Shown: piece after piece, positions 9,915-35,690 of the stretch
How positions within the stretch are numbered: the stretch's first letter is position 1
Layout: each line of letters opens with the position of its first letter
Program-made: the position numbers and the translations under genes
DNA from: Candidatus Delongbacteria bacterium
Lineage (GTDB): Bacteria; CAIWAD01
DNA length: 64,000 bases
Direction of reading: 5' to 3'
NCBI GenBank assembly: GCA_963663545.1
Contig: OY760505.1
Location: 352,001 to 416,000, forward strand
The notes under the pieces: generated by a model
Seen by the model: the letters and a program-made list of their open reading frames with translations, nothing else
What the model was told of the DNA's origin: nothing
The model's database searches: none

Positions 9915-9924
9915 ACCGCGCCCC

Positions 9925-10914
9925 CTACGCGACTTGGATAGTGTCCAGGATACGACGCAGCACGTCGTCCGCCTTCAGTTCCTCGGCCTCGGCCTCGTAG
10001 CTGAGTCCGATGCGGTGACGCATCACGGGCAGCGCCACCTGCTTGACGTCGTCGGGTGTCACAAAACCGCGACGACGCAGGAAGGCCATCGCGCGAGCGG
10101 CGCGGGCCAGATAAATTGTAGCACGCGGACTGGCACCGTACTCCAGCAGCGGGGCTACATCCTTCAGGCCGTAGCGTTCGGGCTCGCGAGTGCAGAAGAC
10201 CAGATCGAGGATGTAGTCTTCGACCTTCTGCTCCAGCAGAATCTGCTGAGTCAGCTCGCGGGCGGCGATGATCTTCGCCGGATCACAAACCGCGCTCACG
10301 GCGGCGGCAAAGGCGCCCGTGTTACGGCGCAGAATCTCGCGTTCCTCGTCGCGTTCGGGGTAGTCGATGAGCACTTTCAGCATGAAGCGGTCCACCTGGG
10401 CCTCGGGCAGCGGGTACGTGCCTTCTTGCTCCAGGGGGTTCTGGGTGGCCATGACCAGGAAGGGCTGCGGCAGCGGCATGGTTTCACCGCCGATGCTCAC
10501 CTGGCGCTCCTGCATGGCTTCCAAAAGCGCGCTTTGCACCTTGGCCGGGCTGCGGTTGATCTCGTCGGCCAGCACCAGATTGGCGAAGACCGGTCCTTTG
10601 CGCGTGTGGAAATCGCCGGTGCGCTGATCGTAAATCTGCGTTCCCACCAGGTCGGCGGGCAGCAGGTCGGGGGTAAACTGGATTCGCGCAAAGCTCGTGT
10701 CGATGGCCTTGGAGAGCGTGGCGATGGCCGTGGTTTTGGCCAGGCCGGGAACGCCTTCCAGCAGAATGTGGCCGTCCGCCAGCAGCCCCAGCAGCAGGCC
10801 TTCGAACATGCGGCGCTGCCCCACCAGCACCTTGCGCACTTCCTGATCCAGCTCCGTCAGAAAGCCCGAGGCTTCCTCTACGCGACGTGAAAGTTCCATG
10901 GCATCCAGTTGCAT
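9925..10914 (-). CDS. moxR: MoxR-family AAA+ ATPase
   Basis: Walker A GVPGLAKT, RIQFTPDLLPAD, DEINR, ATQNPLEQEGTYPLPEAQVDRF. Confidence 0.95.
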   Translation of the reverse strand: MQLDAMELSRRVEEASGFLTELDQEVRKVLVGQRRMFEGLLLGLLADGHILLEGVPGLAKTTAIATLSKAIDTSFARIQFTPDLLPADLVGTQIYDQRTGDFHTRKGPVFANLVLADEINRSPAKVQSALLEAMQERQVSIGGETMPLPQPFLVMATQNPLEQEGTYPLPEAQVDRFMLKVLIDYPERDEEREILRRNTGAFAAAVSAVCDPAKIIAARELTQQILLEQKVEDYILDLVFCTREPERYGLKDVAPLLEYGASPRATIYLARAARAMAFLRRRGFVTPDDVKQVALPVMRHRIGLSYEAEAEELKADDVLRRILDTIQVA

Positions 10915-11837: not shown

Positions 11838-11870
11838 AAAACCCCCGACGGCACACGGTGCCATCGGGGG
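11838..11870 (-). terminator. Rho-independent terminator closing the FGE array
   Basis: Minus strand CCCCCGATGGCAC-CGT-GTGCCGTCGGGGG followed by TTTTGTT. Confidence 0.8.
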
Positions 11871-11913
11871 CAAGAATCGTTCTCTCAAGAACCAAGGGGA
11901 CAAAACCCAAGGG

Positions 11914-13128
11914 TCAAAACACCGTGCGGGCGGCGCGGAAACCCACGCTGCCGGACGTGTACGTCGGGTAGTTGTCGATGTGGGGCGCACACCGAACGTA
12001 CGCGGCATCGTTGTACCAGCCGCCACCCCGAAGCACACGGGTGGAGCCGCCTGTAATTCCGTATGGGTCAGATTGAGTGGAGCTGCTGTAGCTCCCATAC
12101 CAATCACCGCACCACTCCCAGACATTGCCCGCCAGGTCGTAGAAACCACGACCCGTCGCAGGATAACTGCCCACAGGGGTGGACCAGCCCACACAGTAGT
12201 TGTAGTTCAACCGCTCGCAGGTCGGCAACTCACTACCCCAGGGGTACTCTCTCTCATCGTCCCACTGGGCGGCGTACTCCCACTCCGCCTCCGTGGGTAG
12301 GCGGTAGCCCTGGGCGAGATAGGGATCATGGCTGGCGCTTTGATTCCAGTTGCCCTGGTAGAATGCTGGCAGACCTTCCATCAGACTGCGCCAGTCGCAG
12401 TAGCAGGCGGCACCGCACCAGCTGACTTCGATCGCCGGGTGATCGGCCGGGTCGTAGCCGTCCGGGTAGGCAAAGCCGGGTCCCCAGGTGCCATTGTTGT
12501 ACGTACGCGCCACCAGGTAGAACTGCTGGGTGCCCGTGTTAAAGGCGATCTCGCAGTAGTTGGTGTCATCCAGATCGAACAGCTCTACCCCGTAGGCCTG
12601 CACGCTGCTGCTGCTGGCGCTCACCAGGCCCTGGCCGAGCGCCCACTGCAGGGCGTCCATGTACTCCGCGTTGGTCACTTCGTGGGCGTCTAGGTAGAAG
12701 TCGTGGGTCAGGTGTACCGTGTGTTCGGGTGTGATTACACCAGCCTGCCCCATCATGAAGCTGCCGGCGGGAACGAGCACCATGTCCTCCGGAGCCATTG
12801 CTTCCGCATCAACACGCACCACCGCATTCTCGTGATACACACTGCCCAGCCAGGCCTGCAGGTTGATGCTGGCGAAGTGTTCTCCGACGAGCATCTCGCC
12901 GAAGTCGCCCCCAAGGTACGGGTCGGGAACGGCCGTGAAGCTCACGCCTCCGTCCAGGGAGAGCAGCAGGCTGATGTTCGCGTCCTGGTCCGCCAGCCGG
13001 TAGTGCACCTGCAGCCAGCCGGGCGTGTTGCTGTCCTGGTAAAAACTTACCTCAGACACCGTCTGCGCCGCCACGAAACCTGCCAGCAGCAGCGTCCACA
13101 GCAGGGCGATCATTGTACTCCTGTTCAT
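11914..13128 (-). CDS. Secreted Ig-like + FGE-sulfatase (C-type-lectin fold) protein, copy A1
   Basis: Signal peptide, EVTN, RLPTEAEWEYAA, YPWG, DLAGNVWEWC, RGG.W and GFR motifs. Lacks the catalytic CxxxxC of true FGE. Confidence 0.9.
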   Translation of the reverse strand: MNRSTMIALLWTLLLAGFVAAQTVSEVSFYQDSNTPGWLQVHYRLADQDANISLLLSLDGGVSFTAVPDPYLGGDFGEMLVGEHFASINLQAWLGSVYHENAVVRVDAEAMAPEDMVLVPAGSFMMGQAGVITPEHTVHLTHDFYLDAHEVTNAEYMDALQWALGQGLVSASSSSVQAYGVELFDLDDTNYCEIAFNTGTQQFYLVARTYNNGTWGPGFAYPDGYDPADHPAIEVSWCGAACYCDWRSLMEGLPAFYQGNWNQSASHDPYLAQGYRLPTEAEWEYAAQWDDEREYPWGSELPTCERLNYNYCVGWSTPVGSYPATGRGFYDLAGNVWEWCGDWYGSYSSSTQSDPYGITGGSTRVLRGGGWYNDAAYVRCAPHIDNYPTYTSGSVGFRAARTVF

Positions 13129-13137
13129 CTTCCCCCC

Positions 13138-13812
13138 CTACTTCAGCAAAGTGATTTTGTGCTGGGCGACACAATCACCCGCCTGCAGACGTACGATGTA
13201 GATGCCGCTGGCCAGCGCGCTTCCGATAAAGAGCGCCTGGTGCTCGCCGCTGTTCTGCAGGCCGTGATACAAGTCCGCCACCCTCTGTCCACGCAGGTTG
13301 TAAACGCAAAGGGAAGTCTCCTCCGTCTGCGCCAGCACATAGTGGATCACCGTGCCGGGGTTGAAGGGATTGGGGTGTGCGCCCAGCAGCGCAAAACTGG
13401 CTGGCTGCTCATCGGCGGAAGCAACGGCCTCTTCGATCACCTCGAACTCCGTCGACCAGAGCTCGCCTACATTGCCGCAGGCGTCCTGTACGTGAAAGTG
13501 AAACTGGTAGAAGCCCAGCTCCAGCTCGCAGGGCCAGTCGAAGTTGGCGCCGTAGCCCAGGGTCGTGTGCATGGGAACGCTGAGGCCAGCGCCCTCGGCA
13601 GTAATCGTGACCAGCGGCGCTTGCGCGCTCTGATCCGTCACACTGTATTCGACATAGATATCGGTGCCTTGGACGATCTGCGCGTCCAGCACGCTGTCCA
13701 GCGAAACCTGCGGCGCGACGGTGTCAATGACGCCGGGTGCGCTGTCGGCATAGCTGGCAAAAAGGGACGGGCAAGCGAGAAGGCTCGCCAGCACCAGAGT
13801 GCGGTAGTACAT
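13138..13812 (-). CDS. Secreted Ig-like protein with T9SS/FlgD-like CTD, partner B1
   Basis: Signal peptide, IDTVAPQV, FHVQDACGN and PNPFNP...VYNLRGQRV...LASGIY...LLK. Confidence 0.85.
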   Translation of the reverse strand: MYYRTLVLASLLACPSLFASYADSAPGVIDTVAPQVSLDSVLDAQIVQGTDIYVEYSVTDQSAQAPLVTITAEGAGLSVPMHTTLGYGANFDWPCELELGFYQFHFHVQDACGNVGELWSTEFEVIEEAVASADEQPASFALLGAHPNPFNPGTVIHYVLAQTEETSLCVYNLRGQRVADLYHGLQNSGEHQALFIGSALASGIYIVRLQAGDCVAQHKITLLK

Positions 13813-13907
13813 ACTCTCTCCTCGAACCTGGGGTGAATCCCTGGCACACGGTGTTGTGCAGTGCTTTGTTGCTCCTGGGAATGGATGATTCTGCTATAAC
13901 TGTCCGA

Positions 13908-13922
13908 GCAAGCCGTATGCCA
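13908..13922 (-). promoter_or_regulatory. Sigma-54 -24/-12 promoter for B1-A1
   Basis: Minus strand TGGCATA-CGGC-TTGC with exact GG-N10-GC spacing. Confidence 0.75.
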
Positions 13923-14161
13923 ACGGAGCATTATCGTTTACGGGCGCTAAGTGTTTGTTCCTTGCTTTAATATTTCCTGGGTGTGTGGGCGTGGAGCGCG
14001 CGCTGGTGCCGGATCTGGTACAATCTCCCCGACAGTCCAGACACAACAGCGCAGCTGTAGCCGATGCCCGGGCAACCATCGCAGCTCCCACAGAGCGCAA
14101 CGGCAAAGGCTCGGCCAGAAGTTGTTGCTTCCATCAGGCGTGCGCGACTGCCGGACAGAGG

Positions 14162-14191
14162 CAAGCGGCCCGTCGGCTGACGGGTCGCTTG
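14162..14191 (-). terminator. Hairpin downstream of A2
   Basis: CAAGCGGCCCGTC-GGCT-GACGGGTCGCTTG; homologous to hairpins at 16466 and 18776. Confidence 0.65.
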
Positions 14192-14229
14192 ATTTTTCTT
14201 GCGGGCCATGCCCGGCATGTGATACAAGA

Positions 14230-15468
14230 TCAGGGATTGGCGGTACGGCAGACGCGGAAGCCCACGTGGCCGCTCGTGCGCGACGGGGAGTAGTGGCCGT
14301 CGCGATACGCACACCGGACGTACTCGGCAGCGTGGTTCCAGCTGCCACCCCGAATCACGCGGTAGGAGCTGCTCGATATTCCGTATGGATTCGACTGTGC
14401 CGAACTGCTATAGTTGCCATACCAATCACCGCACCACTCCCCGACATTGCCCGCCAGGTCATAAAACCCGCGGCCAGATGGCGGATAGCTGCCTACGGGC
14501 GAGGTCCAGCCCACGCAGTAGCTGCTGCCGTTGTAGTAGTTCAGCAACGCGCAGTCGGGTGGTTCATTACCCCAGGGATAGCTGCGTTCGTCGTTCCACT
14601 GTGCCGCGTACTCCCACTCGGCCTCCGTGGGCAGGCGATAGCCCTGCGCCGTGTATGGATCATGGCTGGCCGACTGATTCCAGTTGCCCTGGTAGAATGC
14701 CGGCAGACCCTCCATCAAACTGCGCCAGTCGCAATAGCAGGCTGCCCCGTACCAGCTCACTTCCTTCACCGGGTGATCGGCCGGGTCATAGCCGCCGGGG
14801 TAGGCAAAGCCAGGACCCGAGAAGCCGCTGGTGTACGAGCGTGCCACCAGATAGAACTGCTGGGTATTGGTGTTGAAGCCGATCTCGCAAAAGCTCGTGG
14901 CATACAGGTCAAGCAGCTCTACCCCGTAGGCCTGCACGCTGCTGCTGGTTACGCTAACCAGCCCCTGGTTGAACGCCCACTGCATCGCGGCCAGATACTC
15001 GGCGTTGGTCACTTCATGGGTATCCAGGTAAAAATCTTGCGTCAGCGTGACTGTGTGTTCGGGTGTGGCCACATCAGAATCAGACTCGCCCATCACGAAG
15101 CTTCCGGCGGGAACGAGGATCATGCTCACCAGAGCCGCCGCTTCCGCATCAACACGCACCACCGCATTCTCGTGATACACGCTGCCCAGCCAGGCCTGCA
15201 GGTTGATGCTGGCGAAGTGTTCGCCGACGAGCATCTCGCCGAAGTCGCCCCCGAGGTACTGGTCGGGAACGGCCGTGAAGCTCACGCCGCCGTCCAGGGA
15301 GAGCAGCAGGCTGATATTCGCATCCTGCTCTGCCAGCGTGTAATGCACCGTCACTAGCCCGCTGCCGTCCTGCGCCTGAGCAAAGCTCACATCTGACACC
15401 GTTTGCGCCGCAGCAAAGCCTGCCAGCAATAGCGTCCACAGCAGGGCGATCATTGTATTTCGATTCAT
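14230..15468 (-). CDS. Secreted Ig-like + FGE-sulfatase protein, copy A2
   Basis: Paralogue of A1 with the same motifs. Confidence 0.9.
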   Translation of the reverse strand: MNRNTMIALLWTLLLAGFAAAQTVSDVSFAQAQDGSGLVTVHYTLAEQDANISLLLSLDGGVSFTAVPDQYLGGDFGEMLVGEHFASINLQAWLGSVYHENAVVRVDAEAAALVSMILVPAGSFVMGESDSDVATPEHTVTLTQDFYLDTHEVTNAEYLAAMQWAFNQGLVSVTSSSVQAYGVELLDLYATSFCEIGFNTNTQQFYLVARSYTSGFSGPGFAYPGGYDPADHPVKEVSWYGAACYCDWRSLMEGLPAFYQGNWNQSASHDPYTAQGYRLPTEAEWEYAAQWNDERSYPWGNEPPDCALLNYYNGSSYCVGWTSPVGSYPPSGRGFYDLAGNVGEWCGDWYGNYSSSAQSNPYGISSSSYRVIRGGSWNHAAEYVRCAYRDGHYSPSRTSGHVGFRVCRTANP

Positions 15469-15477
15469 GCTTTCCCC

Positions 15478-16152
15478 CTACTTCAGCAAAGTGATTTTCT
15501 GCTGGGCCACGCGCTCGCCCGCCTGCAGACGTACGATGTAGATGCCGCTGGCCAGCGCGCTGCCGTCAAAGAGCGCCTGGTGCTCGCCGCTGTCCTGCAG
15601 GCCGTGGTACAATTCCGCCACACGCTGACCGCGCAGGTTGTAGACCTCGAGCGAAGCCTCGGCGGTCTGCGCCAGTGCGTAGCGAATCACCGTGCCGGGG
15701 TTGAAGGGGTTGGGATGCGCGCCCAACAGCGCAAAGCTGGCCGGCTGCTCATCGGCGGAAGCAACGGCCTCTTCGATCACCTCGAACTCCGTCGACCAGA
15801 GCTCGCCTACATTGCCGCAGGCGTCCTGTACGTGAAAGTGAAACTGGTAGATGCCCAGCTCTAGCTCACAGGGCCAGTTGAAGTTGGCGCCGTAGCCCAG
15901 GGTTGTGTGCATGGGAACGCTGAGGCCAGCGCCCTCGGCTGTAATTGTGACCAGCGGCGCTTGCGCGCTCTGGTCTGTCACGCTGTACTCAACGTAGACG
16001 TCGGTGCCGTAGACGATCTGCGCGTCCAGCACGCTGTCCAGCGAAACCTGTGGCGCAACGGTGTCAATGACGCCGGGTGCGCTGTCGGCATAGCTGGCAA
16101 AAAGGGACGGGCAGGCGAGAAGGCTCGCCAGCACCAAAGTGCGGTAGTACAT
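15478..16152 (-). CDS. Secreted Ig-like + CTD partner B2
   Basis: Near-identical to B1, 224 aa from ATG 16152. Confidence 0.85.
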   Translation of the reverse strand: MYYRTLVLASLLACPSLFASYADSAPGVIDTVAPQVSLDSVLDAQIVYGTDVYVEYSVTDQSAQAPLVTITAEGAGLSVPMHTTLGYGANFNWPCELELGIYQFHFHVQDACGNVGELWSTEFEVIEEAVASADEQPASFALLGAHPNPFNPGTVIRYALAQTAEASLEVYNLRGQRVAELYHGLQDSGEHQALFDGSALASGIYIVRLQAGERVAQQKITLLK

Positions 16153-16250
16153 ACTCTCTCCTCGAATCCGTGCGAATCCCTCACAGTGGCGCTGCGGCAG
16201 GATTCTGTGTTTGCTGAAAACGAAATCTGATTTTGCTGCTACGCTTGATT

Positions 16251-16265
16251 GCAAGCTTCATACCA
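16251..16265 (-). promoter_or_regulatory. Sigma-54 promoter for B2-A2
   Basis: Minus strand TGGTATG-AAGC-TTGC. Confidence 0.7.
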
Positions 16266-16460
16266 ATTCCTGCAATGCGTGCCGGAATTGGCAACTGTTA
16301 TAATTCCAAGTAGATGCTTCGCTAATTCGGTGTTGCAGAAATGCAAGTGTGCCGGATACGCGACAGAAGTACAGAACAGCGCGAACACTATTACGCCTGC
16401 GGCGGGAATGGGACACGGCTTTGGAGGGTGGACCGATTCAGGTGCCTTGTCTGTGCACAC

Positions 16461-16493
16461 AAAGAAAGCGACCCGCCGACTAACGGGTCGCTT
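16461..16493 (-). terminator. Rho-independent terminator downstream of A3
   Basis: Minus strand AAGCGACCCG...CGGGTCGCTT followed by TCTTT. Confidence 0.7.
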
Positions 16494-16532
16494 GATTTTC
16501 CTTGCGGGCCATGCCCGGCATGTGATACAAGA

Positions 16533-17753
16533 TCAGGGATTGGCCGTACGGCAGACGCGGAAGCCCACTTGGTAGCTCATTCCATTCGGGCTGTTGCCAT
16601 TGCGGTACGCACACCGGACGTACGTGGCAGAGCTGCTCCAGGCTCCACCTCGACGCACGCGAGCATTAATGCCATCAATTCCGTATGGATTGGATTGAGG
16701 GGAGCTGCTGTAGCTTCCAAACCAATCTCCGCACCACTCATAGAGATTGCCCGCCATGTCGCAGAAGCCAAGGTCTGTAGCCGGATAACTGCCCACCGGG
16801 GTGGTCCAGGCCACACAGTTGTTGTAGTTCAACCGCTCGCAGATCGGCAAGTCATTGCCCCAGGGGTATTCTCTATTATCGTCCCACTGGGCGGCGTACT
16901 CCCACTCTGCCTCCGTGGGTAGGCGGTAGCCCAGGGCCAGATAAGGATCATGGCTCAGGTCTTGATTCCAGTTGCCCTGGTAGAAGGCGGGTAGGCCATC
17001 CATCAGGCTGCGCCAGTCGCAATAGCAGGCGGCGCCGAACCAGCTGACTTCCTTCACCGGGTGATTAGCCGGGTCGTAGCCGTCGGGATAGGCAACGCCG
17101 GGCCCCCATAAGCCACCGCTCGTGCGCGCAACCAGATAGAACTGCTGGATGCTGGCATCGAAGGCAATCTCGCAGTAGTCGGTAGCGTTCAGGTCCAGCA
17201 GCTGCTTACCATAGGCCTGCACGCTGCTGCTGCTGGCGGTCACCAGGCCCTGGTTGTACGCCCACTGCAGCGCGGCCAGGTACTCGGCATTGGTCACCTC
17301 GCAGCGTCCCAGGTAGAAGTCGTTCGTTAGTGTGACCTGATGCTCAGGTGATGAAAAATATATGCCCTCCTGCCCCATCATGTAGCTGCCGGCGGGAACG
17401 AGGATCATGCTCACCAGAGCCGCCGCTTCCGCATCAACACGCACCACCGCATTCTCGTGATACACGCTGCCCAGCCAGGCCTGCAGGTTGATGCTGGCGA
17501 AGTGTTCTCCGACGAGCATCTCGCCGAAGTCGCCCCCAAGGTACTGGTCGGGAACGGCCGTGAAGCTCACGCCTCCGTCCAGGGAGAGCAGCAGGCTGAT
17601 GTTCGCGTCCTGGTCCGCCAGCCGGTAGTGCACCTGTAGCCAGCCGGGTGTGGTACTGTCCTGATAAAAGCCCACTTCCGACACGGTTTGCGCCATCGTG
17701 ACACACGCCATCAGCAGTCCGAGCAGCAGGGCGATGCAGGTAGTCTTCTTCAT
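16533..17753 (-). CDS. Secreted Ig-like + FGE-sulfatase protein, copy A3
   Basis: Paralogue of A1 and A2. Confidence 0.9.
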   Translation of the reverse strand: MKKTTCIALLLGLLMACVTMAQTVSEVGFYQDSTTPGWLQVHYRLADQDANISLLLSLDGGVSFTAVPDQYLGGDFGEMLVGEHFASINLQAWLGSVYHENAVVRVDAEAAALVSMILVPAGSYMMGQEGIYFSSPEHQVTLTNDFYLGRCEVTNAEYLAALQWAYNQGLVTASSSSVQAYGKQLLDLNATDYCEIAFDASIQQFYLVARTSGGLWGPGVAYPDGYDPANHPVKEVSWFGAACYCDWRSLMDGLPAFYQGNWNQDLSHDPYLALGYRLPTEAEWEYAAQWDDNREYPWGNDLPICERLNYNNCVAWTTPVGSYPATDLGFCDMAGNLYEWCGDWFGSYSSSPQSNPYGIDGINARVRRGGAWSSSATYVRCAYRNGNSPNGMSYQVGFRVCRTANP

Positions 17754-17766
17754 TTCTCTTCCCCCC

Positions 17767-18441
17767 CTACTTCAGCAAAGTGATTTTGTGCTGGGCCACG
17801 CGCTCGCCCGCCTGCAGCCGTACGATGTAGATGCCGCTGGCCAGCGCGCTGCCGTCGAAAAAGACCTGGTGCTCGCCGCTGTCCTGCAGGCCGTGATACA
17901 AGTCCGCCACCCGCTGTCCACGCAGGTTGTAGACGCAGAGGGAAGTCTCCTCCGTCTGCGCCAGCGCATAGTGGATTACCGTGCCTGGGTTGAAGGGGTT
18001 GGGATGTGCTCCCAACAGCGCAAAACTGGCTGGCTGCTCATCGGCGGAAGCAACGGCCTCTTCGATCACCTCGAACTCTGTCGACCACGTGTCACAGAAG
18101 TTGCCGCAGGCGTCCTGTACGTGAAAGTGAAACTGGTAAATGCCTAGCTCCAGCTCGCAGGGCCAGTTGAAGTTGGCGCCGTAGCCCAGGGTTGTGTGCA
18201 TGGGAACGCTGAGGCCAGCGCCCTCGGCAGTAATTGTGACCAGCGGCGCTTGCGCGCTCTGATCCGTCACGCTGTACTCAACGTAGACGTCGGTGCCTTG
18301 GACGAGCTGCGCGTCCAGCACGCTGTCCAGCGAAACCTGCGGTGCGACGGTGTCAATGACGCCGGGTGCGCTGTCGGCATAGCTGGCAAAAAGGGACGGG
18401 CAGGCGAGAAGGCAAGCAAGCATCAACGTGCGAACAGTCAT
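17767..18441 (-). CDS. Secreted Ig-like + CTD partner B3
   Basis: Near-identical to B1, 224 aa from ATG 18441 with RBS GAGGAG. Confidence 0.85.
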   Translation of the reverse strand: MTVRTLMLACLLACPSLFASYADSAPGVIDTVAPQVSLDSVLDAQLVQGTDVYVEYSVTDQSAQAPLVTITAEGAGLSVPMHTTLGYGANFNWPCELELGIYQFHFHVQDACGNFCDTWSTEFEVIEEAVASADEQPASFALLGAHPNPFNPGTVIHYALAQTEETSLCVYNLRGQRVADLYHGLQDSGEHQVFFDGSALASGIYIVRLQAGERVAQHKITLLK

Positions 18442-18535
18442 GATCACTCCTCGATTCCGCACAGTCTTACACCTAGCTGTAGGCTGCGGTGAATGCTGTT
18501 GTAGGTTATAGATCGATTTTGCTGAAGCGCAGAGC

Positions 18536-18550
18536 GCAAATGATGTGCCA
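18536..18550 (-). promoter_or_regulatory. Sigma-54 promoter for B3-A3
   Basis: Minus strand TGGCACA-TCAT-TTGC. Confidence 0.78.
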
Positions 18551-18849
18551 TTTTCGTCACACACCTTCGCGTTTGAACAATTGTTCAAATTTCAAGCAGA
18601 TAGCAACCAGAGAATTGAGGAAGAAAAGGCCTCGTGTGCCGGATTTTCTACAGAATTAGGCTCAGACTGAACAATATTTCGCGAACCTTTCCATTGCTTG
18701 GTGGATATCGAGCCAGAATGCCGAAGCTCCATCCATGTACGCACAACGGGCACTTCTACTCGTGCACAGAGCAAGGCGACCCGCCAGCTGACGGGTCGCA
18801 GAAGGTTCGAATTCCAAAACATGAAGGCAGCCAACTGTATCCGGTCACG

Positions 18850-19003
18850 GCTGGAAGCCCCTCCCTCAGGCTTAGCCAGTCGCAATAACAGGCGGCGCCG
18901 TGCCAGCGGACTTCCTTCACCGGGTGAGAGGTGCTTCCAGAGCGCGGGTGAGCCCCGAAGCCAACAGCAGAAGCAGAGCAAACAGTGTTGTGAGCTTCCT
19001 CAT
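18850..19003 (-). pseudogene. Internally deleted remnant of an 'ALEAP'-type FGE gene
   Basis: ATG 19003 (RBS GAGGAG) gives MRKLTTLFALLLLLASGLTRALEAP, joined out of frame to the mid-FGE fragment HPVKEVRWHGAACYCDWLSLREGLPA. Confidence 0.8.
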
Positions 19004-19017
19004 GGTCTCCTCTCAAG

Positions 19018-20220
19018 TCAGGGGTTGACAGTTCGGGCGGCGCGAAAACCCACTCCGCTGCTCGCGTACAAGGGGTCGCTGTTGCGTCGATGCGCACACT
19101 GGACGTTTGTGTCATCGCCGGTCCAGCAGCCACCCCGAATCACTCGAGAGGGGCTACCAGCAATTCCGTATGGATTGGTTTGGTTTGAGCTGCTATAGCT
19201 GCCATACCCATCACCGCACCACTCCCGGATGTTCCCCGCGAGATCTGAAAAACCACGTCCCGTCAGCGGATAGTTGCCAACCGGGGAGGTCCAGCCTATG
19301 CAGTAGCTGCCGCCGTCGTGGTAATTCAGCAATGCGCAGGTGGGGGATTCATTTCCCCAGGGGTAGCTACGTTCATCGTCCCACTGCGCCGCATATTCCC
19401 ATTCAGCCTCCGTCGGCAAACGGTAGCCCTGCGCCAGATAGGGATCGTGGCTGGCGCTTTGATCCCAGTTGCCCTGATAGAACGCGGGCAAGCCCTCGCG
19501 CAGGCTACGCCAGTCGCAGTAACACGCGGCCCCGTACCAGCTGACTTCCTTCACCGGGTGATCGGCCGGGTCGTAGCCGCCGGGGTAGGCGAATCCAGGC
19601 CCCCAGCTACCACTGTTGTATGAGCGCGCCACCAGATAGAACTGCTGTGTACTCGTGTTGAATGCGATCTCGCAGTAGTTAGTGGCATCCAGATTGAGCA
19701 GCTCCACACCGTAGGCCTGTACGCTGCTGCTGTCAGCAGTCACCAGGTCCTGCCCTAGAGCCCACTGCAAGGCTTCCATGTACTGCTGGTTGGTCACCTC
19801 ATGTGCGTCCAGGTAGAAGTCGTAGGTCAGGTGTACCGTGTGCTCCGGCGTGGCCACACCAGCCTGTCCCATCGTGAAGCTACCGGCGGGTACGAACACC
19901 ATGTCGCCTAACTCGCCGATAGCTACAACATTGAAGCTGCCGAATCGAGACGGCTGAAACAGCGAGTCCCACCCCGTAGGCAGGGCGAATTGGCAGCTAG
20001 TTGTATCGGTCCAGGCCAGCAGCGAGTCGGGGCCCGTCCACTGGGTTCTCCCCCGAACCTGATAGGAGACCGCCCCTGCTACGGAAATCCAGTCCAGCCT
20101 GACGCAAGTAGTGTCGCCGTCACACGCGGCAGTGATGGAGACCTGCGGAGCGTCCAGCGCAAAAACAGCCACCAGCGGGATCAGCCACACAGCAGCCATG
20201 ACAAGCACATTCCTCATCAT
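19018..20220 (-). CDS. Secreted FN3-like + FGE-sulfatase protein, copy A4
   Basis: ATG 20220, ALDAPQVSI...LDWISVAGAVSYQV N-domain and the FGE motifs. Confidence 0.88.
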   Translation of the reverse strand: MMRNVLVMAAVWLIPLVAVFALDAPQVSITAACDGDTTCVRLDWISVAGAVSYQVRGRTQWTGPDSLLAWTDTTSCQFALPTGWDSLFQPSRFGSFNVVAIGELGDMVFVPAGSFTMGQAGVATPEHTVHLTYDFYLDAHEVTNQQYMEALQWALGQDLVTADSSSVQAYGVELLNLDATNYCEIAFNTSTQQFYLVARSYNSGSWGPGFAYPGGYDPADHPVKEVSWYGAACYCDWRSLREGLPAFYQGNWDQSASHDPYLAQGYRLPTEAEWEYAAQWDDERSYPWGNESPTCALLNYHDGGSYCIGWTSPVGNYPLTGRGFSDLAGNIREWCGDGYGSYSSSNQTNPYGIAGSPSRVIRGGCWTGDDTNVQCAHRRNSDPLYASSGVGFRAARTVNP

Positions 20221-20899
20221 TCTCTCCTGTTTCTTTCGTCGTCGTGTTTTGATCTCTGCTCGGGTTTCTGCTCTGCGCCCTACCACTCGCCAGCGATCCA
20301 TCCGCCTACGGCCCTATGCGCAACGCGTGTGCGGCATGGCAGCAGATGTACTCAGCGGGTACGGCTGTTGGTCGGCAACTCAACGTGACTGGTAATCAAT
20401 GCCAGGTAGAACAGCATGGCCGTCCGCGAAAGTGTCCACGGGCGTGTCACCCCATGTACTCCCGCGACTCCCCGTCTTGCTGCAAAACGGGACGACTCTG
20501 TGATTTCGTTGCTATTTCTGGTCTTGCTGCAATACTGTTGCGCAATCGGCAGACCAGTTTGCCTCCGCTGCGTGCTTGAGCGTAATGACACTATTTTCAG
20601 TCAGATATCAGCTGCGGTCAGACCGGCTTTTCCTGTACATGCCGGATATTCACCAAATTGGGCGTCGGCATGAACACCTAGGAGCAGCGTTCTCCAGCAA
20701 TCACACTTTCAGTCTGGTTGCTCATGGGACAAGCAACCCGTCAGCTAGCAAGTCGAAGTGGGAACTCTATCGTACCAGGCAGCGAGGCTGTCCGCCGTGA
20801 CACACGCTCACTCGCGTCCTGTCTACCCTGGACATCTTCAATACGCGAGAGTTGGCGCAGCAAACTCCAACGGACCGGCGATTGTGTCACGCGGTAACA

Positions 20900-22039
20900 C
20901 TAATCGACGGTACGCACGCAGCGAAAACCGCAGTCGCTGTACGCGCTCGTAGGCGTTTCGTTGTCGCGGTACGCACAGCGGGCGTAGCTGGCATTGTCGT
21001 TCCAATCTCCCCCGCGCAGCGCACGAGCCGTGCCGCTCGCATTTCCGTATGGATTAGTCTGAGTCGAGCTGCTGTAGTCCCCATACCAATCGCCGCACCA
21101 CTCCCAGACATTGCCCGCCAGATCGTAAAACCCACGTCCCGTCGCCGGATAACTGCCCACCGGGGTGGTCCAACCCACACAGTTGTTGTAGTTCTGCCGT
21201 TCGCAGGAAGGGGATTCATTGCCCCAGGGGTAGCTACGCTCATCGTCCCATTGCGCGGCGTACTCCCACTCCGCTTCCGTCGGTAGACGATAGCCCTGTG
21301 CCATGTAGGGATCGTGGCTCGCGTCAATATTCCAGTTGCCCTGGTAGAAGGCGGGCAAGCCTTCCCTCAGGCTGCGCCAATCGCAGTAACACGCGGCTCC
21401 GTACCAAGTGACCTCGATCACCGGGTGTTGCTCGCTCCCCGCATCCACGCTGAACTGGGACCCGGAGTAGGAGATCTCGCAATCAATATCATCCAGGTCC
21501 AGCAGCTCCAGTCCGTAAGCCTGCACGCTGCTGCTGCTGGCAGTGACCAATCCCTGGTCGTACGCCCACTGCAGGGCCTCTACGTATTCCTGGTTGCTCA
21601 CCTCGTACTGTCCCAGGTAGAAGTCGTGGCTCAGGGTCACGGTGTGTTCCGGCTCGGCCACGCCCACCTGTCCCATGACGAACTCACCGGCAGGCACGAG
21701 CACCAGCGGCATCTCCTCCACCGTCGTCACCGCGCGCACGGAAAAGAGCCGCGCCACGTTGGGGCGTACGCGACCGACCTGCAGCATGGGCACGCGCAGA
21801 CTGTACTCGCAGTTGGTGGTCGTGGTCAGCAGCGAGTCCGTCTGCCAGGCGGCGTTGCGCGGGTCGCGGTGGTAGAGCTCGTAATACTCAGCGCCGCTGA
21901 CGCTGGGCCAGGAAAGCTGCACCTGCACGCAATCCAGATCCGGGTTGTACTGGGTGCTCAGGCTGAGCTGGGGCGTCTCCAGAGCGTGCGCGAGCCCGGC
22001 GGTCAGCAGCAGGGCAAACAAGGTGATACGTCGCAGCAT
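20900..22039 (-). CDS. Secreted FN3-like + FGE-sulfatase protein, copy A5
   Basis: ALETPQLSL...LSWPSVSGAEYYELY N-domain and the FGE motifs; shorter internal insert. Confidence 0.88.
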   Translation of the reverse strand: MLRRITLFALLLTAGLAHALETPQLSLSTQYNPDLDCVQVQLSWPSVSGAEYYELYHRDPRNAAWQTDSLLTTTTNCEYSLRVPMLQVGRVRPNVARLFSVRAVTTVEEMPLVLVPAGEFVMGQVGVAEPEHTVTLSHDFYLGQYEVSNQEYVEALQWAYDQGLVTASSSSVQAYGLELLDLDDIDCEISYSGSQFSVDAGSEQHPVIEVTWYGAACYCDWRSLREGLPAFYQGNWNIDASHDPYMAQGYRLPTEAEWEYAAQWDDERSYPWGNESPSCERQNYNNCVGWTTPVGSYPATGRGFYDLAGNVWEWCGDWYGDYSSSTQTNPYGNASGTARALRGGDWNDNASYARCAYRDNETPTSAYSDCGFRCVRTVD

Positions 22040-22056
22040 GATGGATCCTTTTGAGT

Positions 22057-23262
22057 TCAGGGGTTGGCGGTGCGACAGACGCGGAAGCCCATGCGGCTGA
22101 ACGCGACCGACGGGGCAGCGAAATGGCGACTTGCGCAGAGCAGGTACGACGCGTTGTTACCCCAGCTGCTGTCCCGGCTCACACGGAGGGAGCCGCTTGG
22201 GGGCCCCGTCGGATTGCTCACGCTATCGCTGCTGTAGCTGCCAAACCAATCGCCGCACCATTCGGAGACATTACCGCCCAGGTCGTAGAAACCAAGGCCC
22301 GTCGCTGGATAGCCGCCTACCGGAGTAGTCCACCCCACGCAGAAGCTACTGCCGAGAAAGCAGTTCACCACCTCACAACTGGGGGACTGATCGCCCCAAG
22401 GGTAAGTACGCTCGTCGTTGAACTGGGCCGCATACTCCCACTCAGCCTCTGTGGGCAGACGGTAGCCCTGAGCCAGATAGGGATCGTGGCTGGCGCTTTG
22501 ATTCCAGTTGCCCTGGTAGAAAGCTGGCAAGCCCTCCCTCATACTGCGCCAGTCGCAGTAGCAAGCGGCCCCGTACCAGCTGACGTCCTTCACCGGGTGA
22601 TGGGCAGGGTCGTAGCCCTCGGGGTAGGCAAAACCTGGGCCGAAGGTGCCAGTGTTGGTGGTGCGTGGTACTAGAGTGAACTGTTGAAGGCTTGAGTCGA
22701 AGGCAATCTCGCAGGACTCGACATCACCAATGGCGAGCAGCCCCGCGCCATCAGCCTCGACTCTCGTGTCGGTCACCGTTACCAGGCCCTGATCGTAGGC
22801 CCACTGCAGGGCCTCCATGTACTCCTGGTTGGTCACCTCGTAGCGTCCCAAGTAAAAGTCTTGCGTCAGGGTCGCCGTGTGTTCCGGCTCGGACACGCCC
22901 ACCTGCCCCATGAGGAAGCTGCCCGCAGGTACGAGCACCAGCGGGGACAGCACCGCCCGCACGGAAAAAAGCCGCGCCACGTTGGGGCGCACGCGGCCGA
23001 TCTGAATCATGGGCACGCGCAGGCTATACGCGCAGTTGGTGGTCGTGGTCAGCAGCGAGTCCGTCTGCCAGGCAGCGTTGCGCGGGTCGCGGTAGTAGAC
23101 TTCGTAAACCTCGGCGCCGCTGACGCTGGGCCAGGAAAGCTGCACCTGCACACAATCCAGTTCAGGGTTGTACTGGGTGCTCAGGCTGAGCTGGGGTGCT
23201 TCCAGCGCGTGCGCGAGCCCGGCGGCCAGCAGCAGGGCAAACATTGTGATGCGGTGCGTCAT
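22057..23262 (-). CDS. Secreted FN3-like + FGE-sulfatase protein, copy A6
   Basis: ATG 23262; N-domain nearly identical to A5; FGE motifs. Confidence 0.88.
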   Translation of the reverse strand: MTHRITMFALLLAAGLAHALEAPQLSLSTQYNPELDCVQVQLSWPSVSGAEVYEVYYRDPRNAAWQTDSLLTTTTNCAYSLRVPMIQIGRVRPNVARLFSVRAVLSPLVLVPAGSFLMGQVGVSEPEHTATLTQDFYLGRYEVTNQEYMEALQWAYDQGLVTVTDTRVEADGAGLLAIGDVESCEIAFDSSLQQFTLVPRTTNTGTFGPGFAYPEGYDPAHHPVKDVSWYGAACYCDWRSMREGLPAFYQGNWNQSASHDPYLAQGYRLPTEAEWEYAAQFNDERTYPWGDQSPSCEVVNCFLGSSFCVGWTTPVGGYPATGLGFYDLGGNVSEWCGDWFGSYSSDSVSNPTGPPSGSLRVSRDSSWGNNASYLLCASRHFAAPSVAFSRMGFRVCRTANP

Positions 23263-23396
23263 GGTGGATCCTTGGCCGTGGAACACCTCTGGACACGAGT
23301 GAGCGCGCCACGTAGCTACCACCGCGCGCTGGCAATCGGACGATGTCGTGCGTGCAGGTGCATTCGTGGATTCTGCTCCATTTTTCTTGTTGTGCT

Positions 23397-23411
23397 GCAA
23401 GCTTCGCACCA
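23397..23411 (-). promoter_or_regulatory. Sigma-54 promoter for A6-A5
   Basis: Minus strand TGGTGCG-AAGC-TTGC. Confidence 0.65.
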
Positions 23412-23577
23412 AAGCTGCAACGAGCGCGGCCTTGCTCGTATGTTCTATAATTTCAATTCATGTCACTTCAGCCTGGAACCTGTCTGCCCGCCGGATTCTC
23501 GACATAGATAACAGGAATAGAACAGTATGAATCCAACGCAGACATCGGCAGCCTGGGGCGCGAGACGCGGGGTCCCT

Positions 23578-23745
23578 TCCCCTCCCAATCGGTATCCGAC
23601 TCGCCCCGAGTCGGCGGGATCGCTATCGGTATCGGTATCGTTCCCCCTTCCCCCCCCAATCGGTATCATTCTTCCTTCTCCTGTTCCTTCGCGTAGATTC
23701 CAGCAACAAGCAGGTTTCCGAATCCGACTCCGAAATCGACCTGCC
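23578..23745. repeat. Intergenic REP-like cluster, same family as 11525-11700
   Basis: CCCCTCCCAATCGGTATC, CCGACTCG-CCC-CGAGTCGG at 23596-23614 and ATCGGT iterations. Confidence 0.7.
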
Positions 23746-23845
23746 CCCGTGACGAGCTGGGTCGGCACCGATCGAGATGAGGAAGTGGATGAGACCACGC
23801 ATCCCGTGATCTTGAGAGCGAGCCCTGTTCGCTTCGATCCTCCCG

Positions 23846-25090
23846 CTACGGGGCCACCGTCCGACAGATACGGAAGCCGAGGTCCTCGCTCGCGTTCCCT
23901 GGCAGGGCATTGTAGCGAAAAGCGCAACTCACCGTACCTGCATGGGAGTACGACGAATGGCATCCTCCGCGAGCCACCCGTGCACCCCCCTGACTTGGGC
24001 CTGCGGGGTTGATCGCGTAGTTCGCATTGGGATAGGCGGCAAACCAGTCATTGCACCACTCCCAGACGTTGCCTGCTAAATCATGCAAGCCCAGCGCCGC
24101 GTCGCCGGCGGGATAGCTGCCTACGGGCGCAGTCCAGCGCGCGCAGTTACCGTAGTTTGCCTGCAGGCAAGGTGTGGGTACTGTGTCACCCCATGGATAG
24201 AGTCGCCTATCGTTGTATTGCGCTGCGTATTCCCATTCGGCCTCCGTCGGCAGGCGGTACCCTTCGGCAGCGTATGGATTACCGGGGTCCGGTATTTGTG
24301 ACCATTGGCCATTGTAATAGGGAGTGAGTCCCTCCAACTGACTGCGCCAGTCGCAATAGCAGGCAGCACCGTACCAGGTCACGTGCATGACGGGGTGCGT
24401 GGCAGGATCGTACCCGTTCGGATAAGCCGCCCCCGGACCTCGGCCCTGCGCGCTGAAAGTACCCTCATGAAGGACAAACTGCGGGGAATCGTAGCGGATC
24501 TCGCAATTATCCACCCCTGTGTACCATACCAAAAGGATCTGCCCATACTGCACAACCCTCCCACCACTGGCATTTGGTATCACCAGCCCCTGCTCCAGCG
24601 CCCACTGCAAAGCCTCCAGGTATTCCTCGTTGGTCACTTCGCTACGCCCCAGATAGAAGTATTCCGTCAAGTACACGGCGTGCACGGGCTCGGCCACACC
24701 GGTACGCCCCATGACAAAATAGGCGGCCGGCGGCATCAGCACCATGCCCTCGGGAGCCGTGTGTTCTGCCAACACGCGCACCACGGCATTCGTGCAGTAC
24801 AGACTGCCCAGCCAGGCTTGTATGTTGATGGCAGCGGAGCCATTCCCCGCAGCCACCTCGCCCACATCGCCGCTGGTGTACTCTGCTGGTACGAGCGTGA
24901 AAGAGCTTCCGCCATCCAGCGAGAGCTCAAGGCTGACGTTGGCGTTCAAATCCGGCATCCAGTAGTGCACTTGTAGCCAGCCGGGTGCATTTGCATCCTG
25001 GGAGAAGCTCACGGACATCACGGTCTGCGCGGCGGCAATCCCCGCCAGCTGGAGCGTCCATAGCAGAGCGATCGCGGTAGTTCGGTTCAT
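23846..25090 (-). CDS. Secreted Ig-like + FGE-sulfatase protein, copy A7 (diverged)
   Basis: A1-type N-domain (PGWLQVHY...LSLDGG) and the FGE motifs. Confidence 0.88.
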   Translation of the reverse strand: MNRTTAIALLWTLQLAGIAAAQTVMSVSFSQDANAPGWLQVHYWMPDLNANVSLELSLDGGSSFTLVPAEYTSGDVGEVAAGNGSAAINIQAWLGSLYCTNAVVRVLAEHTAPEGMVLMPPAAYFVMGRTGVAEPVHAVYLTEYFYLGRSEVTNEEYLEALQWALEQGLVIPNASGGRVVQYGQILLVWYTGVDNCEIRYDSPQFVLHEGTFSAQGRGPGAAYPNGYDPATHPVMHVTWYGAACYCDWRSQLEGLTPYYNGQWSQIPDPGNPYAAEGYRLPTEAEWEYAAQYNDRRLYPWGDTVPTPCLQANYGNCARWTAPVGSYPAGDAALGLHDLAGNVWEWCNDWFAAYPNANYAINPAGPSQGGARVARGGCHSSYSHAGTVSCAFRYNALPGNASEDLGFRICRTVAP

Positions 25091-25099
25091 GCTTCCCCC

Positions 25100-25774
25100 C
25101 TACTTCAGCAAGGTGATTTTGTGCTGGGCGACGCAATCACCCGCTTGCAGACGCACAATGTAGATGCCGCTGGCCAGCGCGCTTCCGTCAAAGAGCGCCT
25201 GGTGCTCGCCGCTGTCCTGCAGGCCGTGAACCAAATCCGCTACCCGCTGACCGCGCAGGTTGTAGACGCAGAGAGAAGCCTCCTCAGTCTGCGCCAGCGA
25301 ATAGTAGATCACCGTGCCGGGATTGAAAGGGTTTGGATGTGCGCCTGAAAGGGCAAAGCTGGCCGGTTGGTAGTCCGCAGAGGCAACGTCCTCTCCGATG
25401 ACTTCGAACTCCGTCGACCAGAGCTCGCCTGCATTGCCGCAGGCGTCCTGTACGTGGAAGTGAAACTGGTAGATACCCAGCTCCAGCTCACAGGGCCAGT
25501 TGAAGTTGGCGCCGTAGCCCATGGTTGTGTGCACGGGAACGCTGAGGCCAGCGCCCTCGGCAGTAATCGTGACCAGCGGCGCCTGAGCGCTCTGATCTGA
25601 CACGCTGTACTCGACGTACACCTGTGTGCCAACCACGATCTGCGCGTCCAGCACGCTGACCATCGTAATCTGTGGCGCGACGGTGTCAATGACGCCGGGC
25701 GCGCTGTCGGCGTAACTGGCAAACAGTGCCGGACAAGCAAACAGGGCCGTCAGCACGAAAGTGCGGCAGTGCAT
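25100..25774 (-). CDS. Secreted Ig-like + CTD partner B4
   Basis: 224-aa paralogue of B1-B3. Confidence 0.85.
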   Translation of the reverse strand: MHCRTFVLTALFACPALFASYADSAPGVIDTVAPQITMVSVLDAQIVVGTQVYVEYSVSDQSAQAPLVTITAEGAGLSVPVHTTMGYGANFNWPCELELGIYQFHFHVQDACGNAGELWSTEFEVIGEDVASADYQPASFALSGAHPNPFNPGTVIYYSLAQTEEASLCVYNLRGQRVADLVHGLQDSGEHQALFDGSALASGIYIVRLQAGDCVAQHKITLLK

Positions 25775-25872
25775 ACTCTCTCCTCAAATGCGGATGTCCT
25801 CCTGCGAGGCCTGCTGCGGGAAGATCAATTGCTTGCTGATGATGGAATCGGATTCTGCCGCGCACAGCACAT

Positions 25873-25887
25873 GCAAGCTTCGTACCA
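25873..25887 (-). promoter_or_regulatory. Sigma-54 promoter for B4-A7
   Basis: Minus strand TGGTACG-AAGC-TTGC. Confidence 0.72.
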
Positions 25888-26030
25888 AAACAGCCCAGGA
25901 GATAAGACAACCCTTAATCTCTATCTAAACAAGCAGTTCCAATGAATAGTACCGGGTGTTCACTCCGAGCCAGCAAGCACATATGTCGGATTTATAACAA
26001 GATTCTCGGCAGACTGAACAAGGCTGCAGG

Positions 26031-27252
26031 CTACTCGGCCGCTTTAGCACACGGAAGCCCAGATAGTCCTTTGCGTAGGGTGGAGAATAGCTGACCCGAT
26101 AGGCGCATTTCACGTAGGACGCAGTGGCCTTCCCAGGTACCACCCCGGAAGAAGCGGGCAGAGCCGGTGCTTGCACCGAGGGGGTCGGACGCGGCACTCG
26201 AGGGATAAACCCCATAACAGTCGCCACACCACTCAGCGATGTTACCCGCTATATCATGCAAGCCCAAGGTGCTGCCCCCACAGGATAGCTGCCCACGGGT
26301 GCTGTCCAGCCCACACACCTGGCCATGTCTGCATGGACGCACTCCACGGGTAAGTCATTGCCCCATGGATAGGTACGTTCGTTCTCTTACCGCACCGCGT
26401 ACTCCCACTCCGCTTCTGTTGGCAGTCGGTAGCCATCGGCCAGGTAGGGGTTGTGGCTGGTTGTCTGATCCCAGACTCCATAATAGAAGGGCGACAAGCC
26501 TTCTCTTTGGCTGCGCCAATCGCAGTAGCAGGCGGAACCGTACCAAGTGACATACTTCGCAGGATGTGATGCGGGATCATAACCTTCTGGATAGGCTGCC
26601 CCTGGGCCGGAGATCCCATTGACGTAGGTTCCTGCTTGTAGGAAAAACAGCTGCGAGCTGCTATTGAATTGAATCTCGCACCGATCAGCAGCAGTTCATC
26701 GATGCCCAGCAGGTCCTGTCCGTACTGGCACACGTACTCCCCATCTTCAGAAATCGTCAACAATCCCTGAACCCAGGCCCATTGCACAGCTGCCAGGTAC
26801 TCCTGATTGCTCACCTCATACTGGCCAATCAGGAAGTCATGGGTCAGGGTCACTTAGTGTTCCGGCGGAGCCACGCCATTCTGCCCCATCATGCAGCCGC
26901 CAGCAGGGATGAGAACCATGGCTGCTTCATCGATCGCCGCTCGCACGTGGAAGGTGCGCGCCAGGTTCGAGCGCACACGGCCAGGCTGGCGCCAGCGCAG
27001 GTGCAATTCAAAGCCACAGTCCGTGATTGTAGCCAGCAGGAAATCCTCCACCCAGGTAGAACTACGCGGATTGCGGTAGTAGACTTGATACTGCGTGGCA
27101 CCAGTGACGCAGGGCCACTGAAGCTGGACAAGCGCGCTATCCGTCCCCTCGATGCACTGCGCAGCAACACTTATCTGCGGAGCTTCCAGAGCACAGGCGA
27201 CTCCTGCTGTCAGCAGCAGGAGCACCCCAACCAGTTGCTTCAAGCGTGTCAT
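26031..27252 (-). pseudogene. Degraded FGE-sulfatase gene A8 (duplicate of A9)
   Basis: In-frame TAA at 26854-26856 where A9 has CAG, a frameshift near 26690 and further lesions; FGE motifs are scattered across frames. Confidence 0.85.
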
Positions 27253-27418
27253 TTCCAGCTCTTCGTTTGTTGCCCCCTCGTGTTGCCAGCAGTCCGGTCA
27301 AAGGGTTCCAAAGACCTATCGATCACTGACTTCTTGACGCCAGGTGCTGTTCTCCCAGCAGTGGCCAATCGCGGCTCACGCTATTCCCAAGGCAGAAGTT
27401 CAGGGTGCGCGCACTCGA

Positions 27419-28651: not shown

Positions 28652-28743
28652 ATCCAGTCCTTTGTTTGTTGACCTCTCGTGTTGCCGGGCGCTTGGAGCC
28701 ACAGAAAGTGAACACGCCCTCTCCTGCAATGAAAAATGATTCA

Positions 28744-35565: not shown

Positions 35566-35690
35566 GTGACATATAAGAAAAGGCCGGATCGCGCCGGCCA
35601 TTTCTTTTGTGTCACGATGATCATGCTAATGTGGCTTTTGGGATAGGCCACTCTCCGATACCGATCCGACTCTGAAGGAGTCGGCACCGA
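35566..35690. repeat. 125-bp direct repeat, copy 1
   Basis: Matches 40971-41095 with 3 mismatches by manual alignment. Confidence 0.92.

Follow-up and report, generated by a model that had tools for sequence, protein, structure and literature searches.

A two-gene cassette in a Candidatus Delongbacteria genome predicted to pair a lectin-fold protein with a type IX secretion partner

How a secreted lectin that lacks a sorting signal for the outer membrane might reach the cell surface is the question raised by a 64,000-nucleotide stretch of DNA (the window) from a Candidatus Delongbacteria bacterium. The window has a GC content of about 60% and corresponds to positions 352001-416000 of a complete, single-contig genome of 3.72 Mb (contig OY760505.1, assembly GCA_963663545.1). 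Eight intact genes on the minus strand, between window positions 11914 and 28729, encode secreted proteins that have an FGE-sulfatase domain (PF03781), and four of them form two-gene cassettes: a gene for a 224-residue partner, here called B, is followed after 9-13 nt by a gene for a 404-414-residue FGE protein, here called A or the head. The explanation we favor, at odds slightly better than even (about 0.55) and on computational evidence throughout, is that A and B make up a two-chain type IX secretion system (T9SS) surface lectin, with an added beta-strand holding the chains together and with export and anchoring provided by B. The gene arrangement, the domains, the conservation of the pairing and of a tail motif, and a confident predicted interface were all obtained by computation, and from these we infer that A and B bind to each other in the cell, that A passes the outer membrane together with B, and that the pair remains on the surface.

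The paired genes and their products

The four cassettes all lie on the minus strand. The first consists of B1 (13138-13812) and A1 (11914-13128, 404 aa), the second of B2 (15478-16152, 93% identical to B1) and A2 (14230-15468, 412 aa), the third of B3 (17767-18441, 92% identical to B1) and A3 (16533-17753, 406 aa), and the fourth of B4 (25100-25774, 87% identical to B1) and A7 (23846-25090, 414 aa). Measured from the open reading frame (ORF) coordinates, the gaps between B and A are 9, 9, 13 and 9 nt, in agreement with the original prediction that every head with this immunoglobulin (Ig)-type N-terminal domain lies 9-13 nt 3' of a 224-residue partner. A ribosome-binding site of the GGGGGAAG type is present in the gaps. 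Terminator-like hairpins were found after A1 (11841-11871), A2 (14162-14191) and A3 (16466-16493), with stems of 14, 13 and 12 pairs, and a consensus scan detected none between B and A, an arrangement that fits one B-A transcript per cassette. A 2048-nt contig (run X1) spans A7 and the 3' part of B4 with zero differences; the lack of differences in two records covering the 3' end of A7 carries little weight.

The remaining four heads, A4 (19018-20301), A5 (20900-22039), A6 (22057-23412) and A8 (27419-28729), are also encoded on the minus strand and have a different, FN3-type N-terminal domain and no C-terminal sorting domain (CTD). Because a search of the genome with B1 revealed no other CTD gene within 11914-28729, these four heads have no such partner, as had been claimed.

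All eight heads scanned matched PF03781 (E values of 1e-44 to 8e-53; 2e-46 for A1, 8e-53 for A2, 4e-47 for A3 and 1.5e-46 for A7). A1 comprises a signal peptide (residues 1-21), a beta-sandwich (22-112), an FGE-sulfatase/C-type-lectin head (114-401) and a C-terminal tail that resembles the variable region (VR) of proteins mutated by diversity-generating retroelements (DGRs); the A proteins thus combine the C-type-lectin/FGE fold and the C-terminal variable region by which DGR variable proteins are recognized. The sandwich, referred to below as the N-domain, is encoded at 12793-13065 in A1, 15133-15405 in A2, 17418-17690 in A3 and 24755-25027 in A7 (minus strand). As described in the original prediction, AVVRVDAE (residues 102-109) closes this domain; the FGE match begins at residue 114-115. 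Residues 22-112 of A1 matched no Pfam family at E≤1. The A proteins lack a CTD of their own: PF18962 was found in 0/8 heads, and the CTD of B1 had no match inside the A genes.

B1 consists of a signal peptide (residues 1-19), a tail (20-33), an Ig-like domain (about 34-128), a linker (129-146) and a T9SS type A CTD (147-224). Two B proteins were scanned, and in both Por_Secre_tail (PF18962) matched residues 147-220, with 27.4 bits (E 4.2e-6) in B1 and 29.9 bits (E 6.9e-7) in B4, a thin margin over the cut-off of 27 bits; partners in relatives matched the same family with E values of 7e-14 to 8e-9. In B1 and B4 the domain thus occupies the extreme C-terminus, as expected of a Por_Secre_tail/TIGR04183-type CTD. 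In an AlphaFold2 (AF2) model of B1 alone, with a predicted local distance difference test (pLDDT) value of 70, residues 20-28 were disordered, Ig strands began at residue 35 and CTD strands spanned 154-222, with a disordered linker between the Ig-like domain and the CTD. The B model matched the structure of the RgpB CTD (5ag8_A, E 5e-6). The Ig-like domain itself was only weakly similar to Big_13 (E 0.0095-0.025, 15.5-16.8 bits against a cut-off of 27), and a profile of the N-terminal part of B matched 1488 proteins, mostly giant Ig-repeat proteins. The string LLAC in B was considered as a possible lipobox, a reading we rejected on finding that the Cys is not conserved in register in B5, in the sister-genus partner (G007) or in P0143, three B-like proteins described below. 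Neither A nor B has a lipobox.

The tail of B (residues 20-33, SYADSAPGVIDTVA) is encoded at 13714-13755 in B1, 16054-16095 in B2, 18343-18384 in B3 and 25676-25717 in B4, on the minus strand. It is 100% identical in 6/6 pairwise comparisons of B1-B4 and is the sole part of B that is so constant. Pairwise identity is 84-96% for the B Ig domain, 86-92% for the B CTD, 56-96% for the A N-domain, 52-76% for the FGE core and 39-68% for the VR-like C-terminal tail of A, the most diverged part, and this gradient makes the cassette constant at its B end and variable at its head end. The description of B as near-invariant is therefore accurate for the tail but slightly overstated for the whole protein, whose copies are 87-93% identical.

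Predicted contact between A and B and its conservation

The A1 N-domain was modeled with the mature N-terminal part of B1, each chain being represented by a six-row alignment of paired relatives, and three controls were run. The interface score ipSAE was 0.89, 0.88 and 0.87 (median 0.88), and the best of the 3 controls scored 0.00. In calibration, 116 of 157 solved complexes attain this mark, as do 2 of 215 mismatched pairs, proportions that are only roughly valid for custom alignments. The runs agreed in at least 97% of contacts, with partner pLDDT of at least 82, and the A N-domain (chain 1 of the complex) had a pLDDT of 93 with B compared to 75 or 66 with unrelated partners. The tail forms the main interface of the predicted complex. 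On the B side, in mature numbering, the interface comprises residues 1-14 (20-33 of the protein) together with Ig-domain loops at 42-43, 90 and 92-96; on the A side it comprises residues 1-8, 10-13, 15-16, 18, 20, 22, 36, 39-40, 69-70 and 73-87. The tightest contacts are those of B 3-9 with A 81-85 (the last strand, AVVRV), B 9-11 with A 77-78, and B 3-5 with A 6-8 (the first strand, VSF). Read from the contact list, the tail appears to run antiparallel along the last strand of A while touching the first, and the contacts of B 3-11 with A 77-85 and 6-8 would fit an added edge strand. Since the tail is disordered in the model of B alone, it would be free to dock. The original prediction had foreseen contact through residues ~21-33 of B, and the model placed the main contact at 20-33, so that binding of A and B through this segment is supported by modeling.

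Residues at the predicted interface are preferentially conserved. Between A7 and A1, 78% of interface residues are conserved compared to 54% of the rest; the corresponding values against A1 are 43% and 24% for an A protein from another locus (L006) and 41% and 24% for the A protein of the sister genus. On the partner side, 10/22 interface residues and 30/99 others are shared between B5 and B1, and 9/22 and 14/99 between the sister-genus partner and B1. A Phe at position 8 of the N-domain, which lies in the interface, is present in 9/9 partnered sequences and 2/10 partner-less ones, and is missing from the partner-less N-domains of G009 and G005; this is a lead rather than a test, as the sequences are phylogenetically related.

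The pairing itself is conserved. In this genome, 5/5 B-type N-terminal parts and 5/5 A-type N-domains occur in five adjacent pairs, which excludes chance. The fifth pair lies at about 447-448 kb of the genome, where B5 (42% identical to B1) is followed 10 nt downstream by a 696-aa A-type gene. Its product has the same N-domain with PKD and PPC domains in place of FGE, which indicates that the partner goes with the N-domain and not with the lectin. A sister genus has a 322-aa partner with tail, Ig, HYDIN-like Ig and CTD, and an A-like gene begins 11 nt after it. Searching from the A N-domain alone, and then inspecting the upstream gene, led to three metagenome lineages: the first (L082/L083) has a 326-aa partner with the same architecture as that of the sister genus, the second (L087/L089) a 413-aa partner with tail, Ig, dockerin-like repeats and CTD (E 7e-14), and the third (L093) a 253-aa partner with tail and Ig but no CTD, whose end overlaps the start of A. 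Even at 21-35% identity, lineages identified without the use of B retain both pairing and tail motif. The converse, B-like genes that lack an A neighbor, was independently covered in this genome, where 5/5 had one. Word-based protein searches with B (residues 18-140) and A (22-112) retrieved only this genome and one near-identical 22-kb contig. A contig scan with P0143, a 224-aa B-like protein from elsewhere that carries the tail motif, gave 36 loci, most matching in the CTD alone (about 95-224) and a few from residue 69, none of which matched the tail; 0 of the 135 matching stretches from an alignment-based metagenome scan were confirmed.

A motif of the form S..G[VTIMS][ILV]D (S-x-x-G-h-h-D) is found near the mature N-terminus of all 7 distinct partners, and its core is common to the B1-type tail and 6 other partner or cis sequences. 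In this genome the motif occurs within the first 50 residues of 8 of 5512 ORFs of at least 100 aa, 5 of which are B1-B5. The segment [ILV]D[TSN]xxP is the ordinary start of a B-type Ig domain, with 737 occurrences in 146 giant repeat proteins; the S..G prefix precedes only 8 of these generic starts, which all belong to a single protein. Every tail has Gly at its position 8, a place taken by Tyr, Phe, Val or Leu in 71% of 735 generic starts. The tail resembles, at the level of sequence, a specialized repeat junction made up of a last strand plus linker. We also considered that it might be merely the generic last strand and linker of tandem Big_13/HYR repeats, as in P0050, an account that falls short given the Gly at position 8. 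In three relatives (P0165, P0159 and P0160), a tail-like stretch stands in cis directly before the N-domain; an ancestral cis hairpin was considered as a precursor and is unsupported, the cis stretch being disordered in the AF2 model.

The best-surviving alternative is that there is no physical complex, with B and A merely co-transcribed, B acting as an independent small T9SS adhesin, and the interface arising artificially where a free N-terminal tail meets the exposed edge of a sheet. Adjacent genes often encode proteins that do not bind, models add strands to Ig-like edges promiscuously, each alignment contained no more than 6 rows, and AF2 did not place the cis tail. Against this, all three controls scored 0.00, pairing and tail motif are retained at 21-35% identity in the lineages found without B, no part of B other than the tail is 100% conserved among the copies, and the interface residues are preferentially conserved. 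We consider the absence of a complex unlikely on this balance.

Mode of joining, export and related systems

If A and B do bind, the next question is whether the tail of B completes an unfinished domain or adds to a finished one. The original prediction held the N-domain of the head to be an incomplete, split Ig domain. The window A proteins retain a last strand of their own, AVVRV, homologous to that of the relative P0165 (residues 96-103), and P0165, modeled alone from a 16-row alignment, folds as a complete seven-strand sandwich with pLDDT of 85-92. The split-domain version, which a head domain folding alone as a complete sandwich was to refute, accordingly fails, and the binding version survives. 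In structural comparisons with VIA-align the N-domain relative gave generic FN3/Ig-like matches only, all below Z 8, the best being a subtilase C-terminal domain (8jmw_A, Z 7.1, root-mean-square deviation 2.6, 83 aligned residues); a Foldseek search of the PDB with the N-domain returned nothing at E≤0.001. The complete fold argues for strand addition rather than complementation of a split domain.

Strict donor-strand complementation, in which the N-domain of A would be unstable or unfolded without the B strand as chaperone-usher pilins are, would explain why the tail of B is the predicted interface, between or along the first and last strands of A, and why A has a pLDDT of 93 with B but of 66-75 with unrelated partners. 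It is at odds with the domain's own last strand and with the generic, complete fold of the relative. The N-domain also stands without a partner at 10/21 N-terminal-type loci and inside S8 peptidases, and the 26 window ORFs scanned (3448-40977) include no chaperone or usher family. We therefore judge complementation improbable. A polymer or scaffold of the pilus or cohesin-dockerin kind, with B-type proteins as scaffold ends rather than 1:1 carriers, is least credible of all: it draws on N-domain, FGE and HYR-type Ig modules chained in single proteins of 754-1242 aa elsewhere (P0159, P0160) and on the one partner with dockerin-like repeats (E 0.0054, below cut-off), but A lacks a tail that it could pass on to a further subunit, the cassettes each contain a single B and a single A, and no further subunit genes were seen in the window. 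In the two chained proteins (P0159, 1242 aa; P0160, 754 aa), N-domain, FGE and HYR modules recur two to three times within a single chain. As fused forms of module types that are split over two genes in the window, they provide a weak "Rosetta stone" link between the module types.

For the two-chain, strand-joined lectin we favor, the route to the surface would be the T9SS. The genome has a 2356-aa frame matching SprA_N (PF14349, E 4.2e-35), SprA being the one T9SS component searched for, and a search with B1 gave 144 CTD matches. A has a signal peptide, and the CTD of B is the only visible outer-membrane export signal in the pair; B may thus carry A across the outer membrane and perhaps anchor it on the surface. 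In the mechanism we propose, both proteins would enter the periplasm via Sec signal peptides. The first ~14 residues of mature B would then form an extra beta-strand on the edge made by the first and last strands of the A sandwich, with the Ig-like domain of B packing beside the docked tail. The type A CTD of B would take the pair through the T9SS and, as in other type A cargo, may keep B, together with A, bound at the cell surface. A would supply a C-type-lectin-fold binding head of the kind mutated by DGRs.

Several observations weigh against this proposal. The interface stands as model confidence only. The N-domain is autonomous: no tail-motif gene lies upstream at 10/21 N-terminal-type loci (four genes in G009, three in G005, and L084, L085 and L095), compared to 11/21 with such a gene, or roughly 6 versus 5 lineages, and the domain is also found internally in S8 peptidases (P0162, L086, L088 and L091) and in an Ig-repeat protein (L092). 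The tail-like stretch that stands in cis in relatives is disordered in its AF2 model (pLDDT <50). The genome also encodes a 429-aa paralog (C1:2934708-2935997, minus strand) in which a signal peptide and an FGE-sulfatase domain are combined with a T9SS CTD on the same chain; beside it is a gene for a 337-aa FGE protein without CTD. A CTD after the head is thus tolerated and splitting is not forced; the paralog shows, by its predicted domain order, that FGE heads in this organism can themselves be direct cargo of the T9SS, which weakens the argument that the C-terminus of the head must stay free of a CTD. The L093 partner has no CTD, so supplying one cannot be all that the partner does, and the FN3-type heads, with neither CTD nor partner, suggest that a CTD is dispensable for FGE heads or that another route exists. 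We found no precedent for a non-covalent pair passing the T9SS translocon. Likewise, no T9SS cargo carried in trans by a CTD-bearing partner was found in the literature searched, among it PMC9251779, PMC6247017, PMC9936825 and PMC10994853; the search covered few subscription papers and so is not proof of absence.

The suggestion that the cassette joins a constant export and anchor chain to an exchangeable variable chain through a strand therefore holds in part: predicted binding via B 20-33 and the conserved pairing stand, and the split Ig fold does not. A broader possibility, which we advance tentatively and would place somewhat short of even odds, is a general plug-and-socket for the T9SS, in which a carrier tail of the S-x-x-G-h-h-D type docks on the ~90-aa sandwich of a CTD-less cargo, and the folded cargo hitchhikes across the outer membrane and is displayed. 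The cargo types so far are DGR-type lectins and one PKD/PPC protein, and the carrier bodies are Ig plus CTD, Ig plus HYDIN-like Ig plus CTD, and Ig plus dockerin-like repeats plus CTD. The N-domain is also found on a further lectin class: on one metagenome contig with 36% GC (L084/L085), it is joined to Fib_succ_major heads, another DGR-type class, with no tail-motif partner, and a CTD protein of >965 aa lies between the two N-domain copies.

The individual parts of this arrangement have counterparts in known systems. T9SS type A CTD cargo such as RgpB and RemA have, like B, a Sec signal peptide and a C-terminal PF18962 domain, and the genome encodes a SprA homolog; here, however, the functional head A is a separate, CTD-less polypeptide. 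The likeness to chaperone-usher pili lies in an N-terminal extension of one subunit, predicted to sit as a beta-strand where the first and last strands of another subunit's Ig-like fold form an edge. In contrast to pilins, the acceptor A retains a last strand of its own and is modeled as a full sandwich, no chaperone or usher families were detected among the 26 window ORFs scanned, and export here would use the T9SS. Type V pili (FimA/Mfa1) of Bacteroidota are another case of strand-mediated assembly of Ig-like surface subunits in T9SS-bearing bacteria; their subunits are made as lipoprotein precursors and use a C-terminal donor strand after gingipain cleavage. A and B have no lipobox, and the donor strand here would be N-terminal.

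In Tat "hitchhiker" co-export and peroxisomal piggyback import, a signal-less partner crosses the membrane bound to a signal-bearing one through a machine for folded proteins, according to the part of PMC9251779 consulted. A would similarly cross a membrane bound to the signal-bearing B; the machine and membrane differ, and as A and B both have Sec signals, only the outer-membrane step would be shared. TvpA-type DGR variable proteins resemble A in PF03781 and the VR-like C-terminal tail, and the relatives L087/L089 vary in the VR beside a reverse transcriptase. Differences are that this genome has no template repeat matching the A genes and that the portion of PMC5758913 consulted mentions no surface-display partner.

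T9SS cargo is currently recognized by a CTD on the same chain. If the plug-and-socket reading is correct, it would be the first trans-acting CTD carrier for the T9SS, and the lending of a CTD to a separate protein would enlarge the secretome predicted for the T9SS, with CTD-less neighbors counting as cargo. DGR variable proteins could then keep a free, mutable C-terminus and still reach the surface, which suggests how the variable lectins of uncultured bacteria of the Fibrobacterota-Chlorobiota-Bacteroidota (FCB) type may be mounted on the cell. The pair would also constitute a small, testable docking system for surface display.

Head variety and the surroundings of the array

Among DGR targets, no class is larger than the FGE-type proteins (71 of 372 DGRs) in the part of PMC5758913 consulted, where 16 of the 71 FGE-type targets have N-terminal extensions of unknown function and TvpA-type proteins are described as having an FGE domain without formylglycine-generating activity. 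We looked in this genome for a template repeat and reverse transcriptase cognate to the A genes and found no such set: a blastn search of the 3' ends of the 8 head genes against the genome gave paralogs only. Head variety here comes from diverged paralogs, four in number or eight with the FN3-type heads. The array represents an alternative to retro-mutagenesis, in which tail, Ig and N-domain stay constant and the heads diverge by duplication. The single RVT_1 match in the genome is a 371-aa reverse transcriptase at about 855 kb (locus L001, C1:853630-857163), roughly 440 kb from the window. A template-repeat-like stretch and two FGE-sulfatase target genes flank it, and the C-terminal tails of these targets depart from the repeat. 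This locus looks like a complete DGR and is unrelated at the DNA level to the window heads.

In the L087/L089 lineage, the two loci are identical over about 2.7 kb except for 12 nt, and 11/12 differences lie in the last 135 nt of the A-like FGE gene. An ORF matching RVT_1 (E 4.5e-12) lies 900 nt downstream, and the 1 kb that separates variable region and reverse transcriptase in L087 yielded no template repeat. Judged from this pattern of differences, the lineage is an active DGR with the same partner arrangement.

Two damaged copies lie within the array itself, both on the minus strand: a broken FN3-type head at 26109-26925, with three PF03781 pieces and in-frame TAA stops, and a short FGE fragment at 18592-18981, between A4 and B3. 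These are remnants of cassette turnover. Directly downstream of the array, the minus strand at 3448-10914 encodes a MoxR AAA ATPase, DUF58 and BatA/VWA/TPR/BatD proteins, a Bat-type aerotolerance operon. At 33695-40977, also on the minus strand, are three large T9SS cargo genes with PF18962 in each; lamin-tail domains occur in one of them and FG-GAP repeats in the other two. A lone N6/N4 DNA methylase gene (PF01555, E 2e-22) lies on the plus strand at 29006-30118, next to the last head gene.

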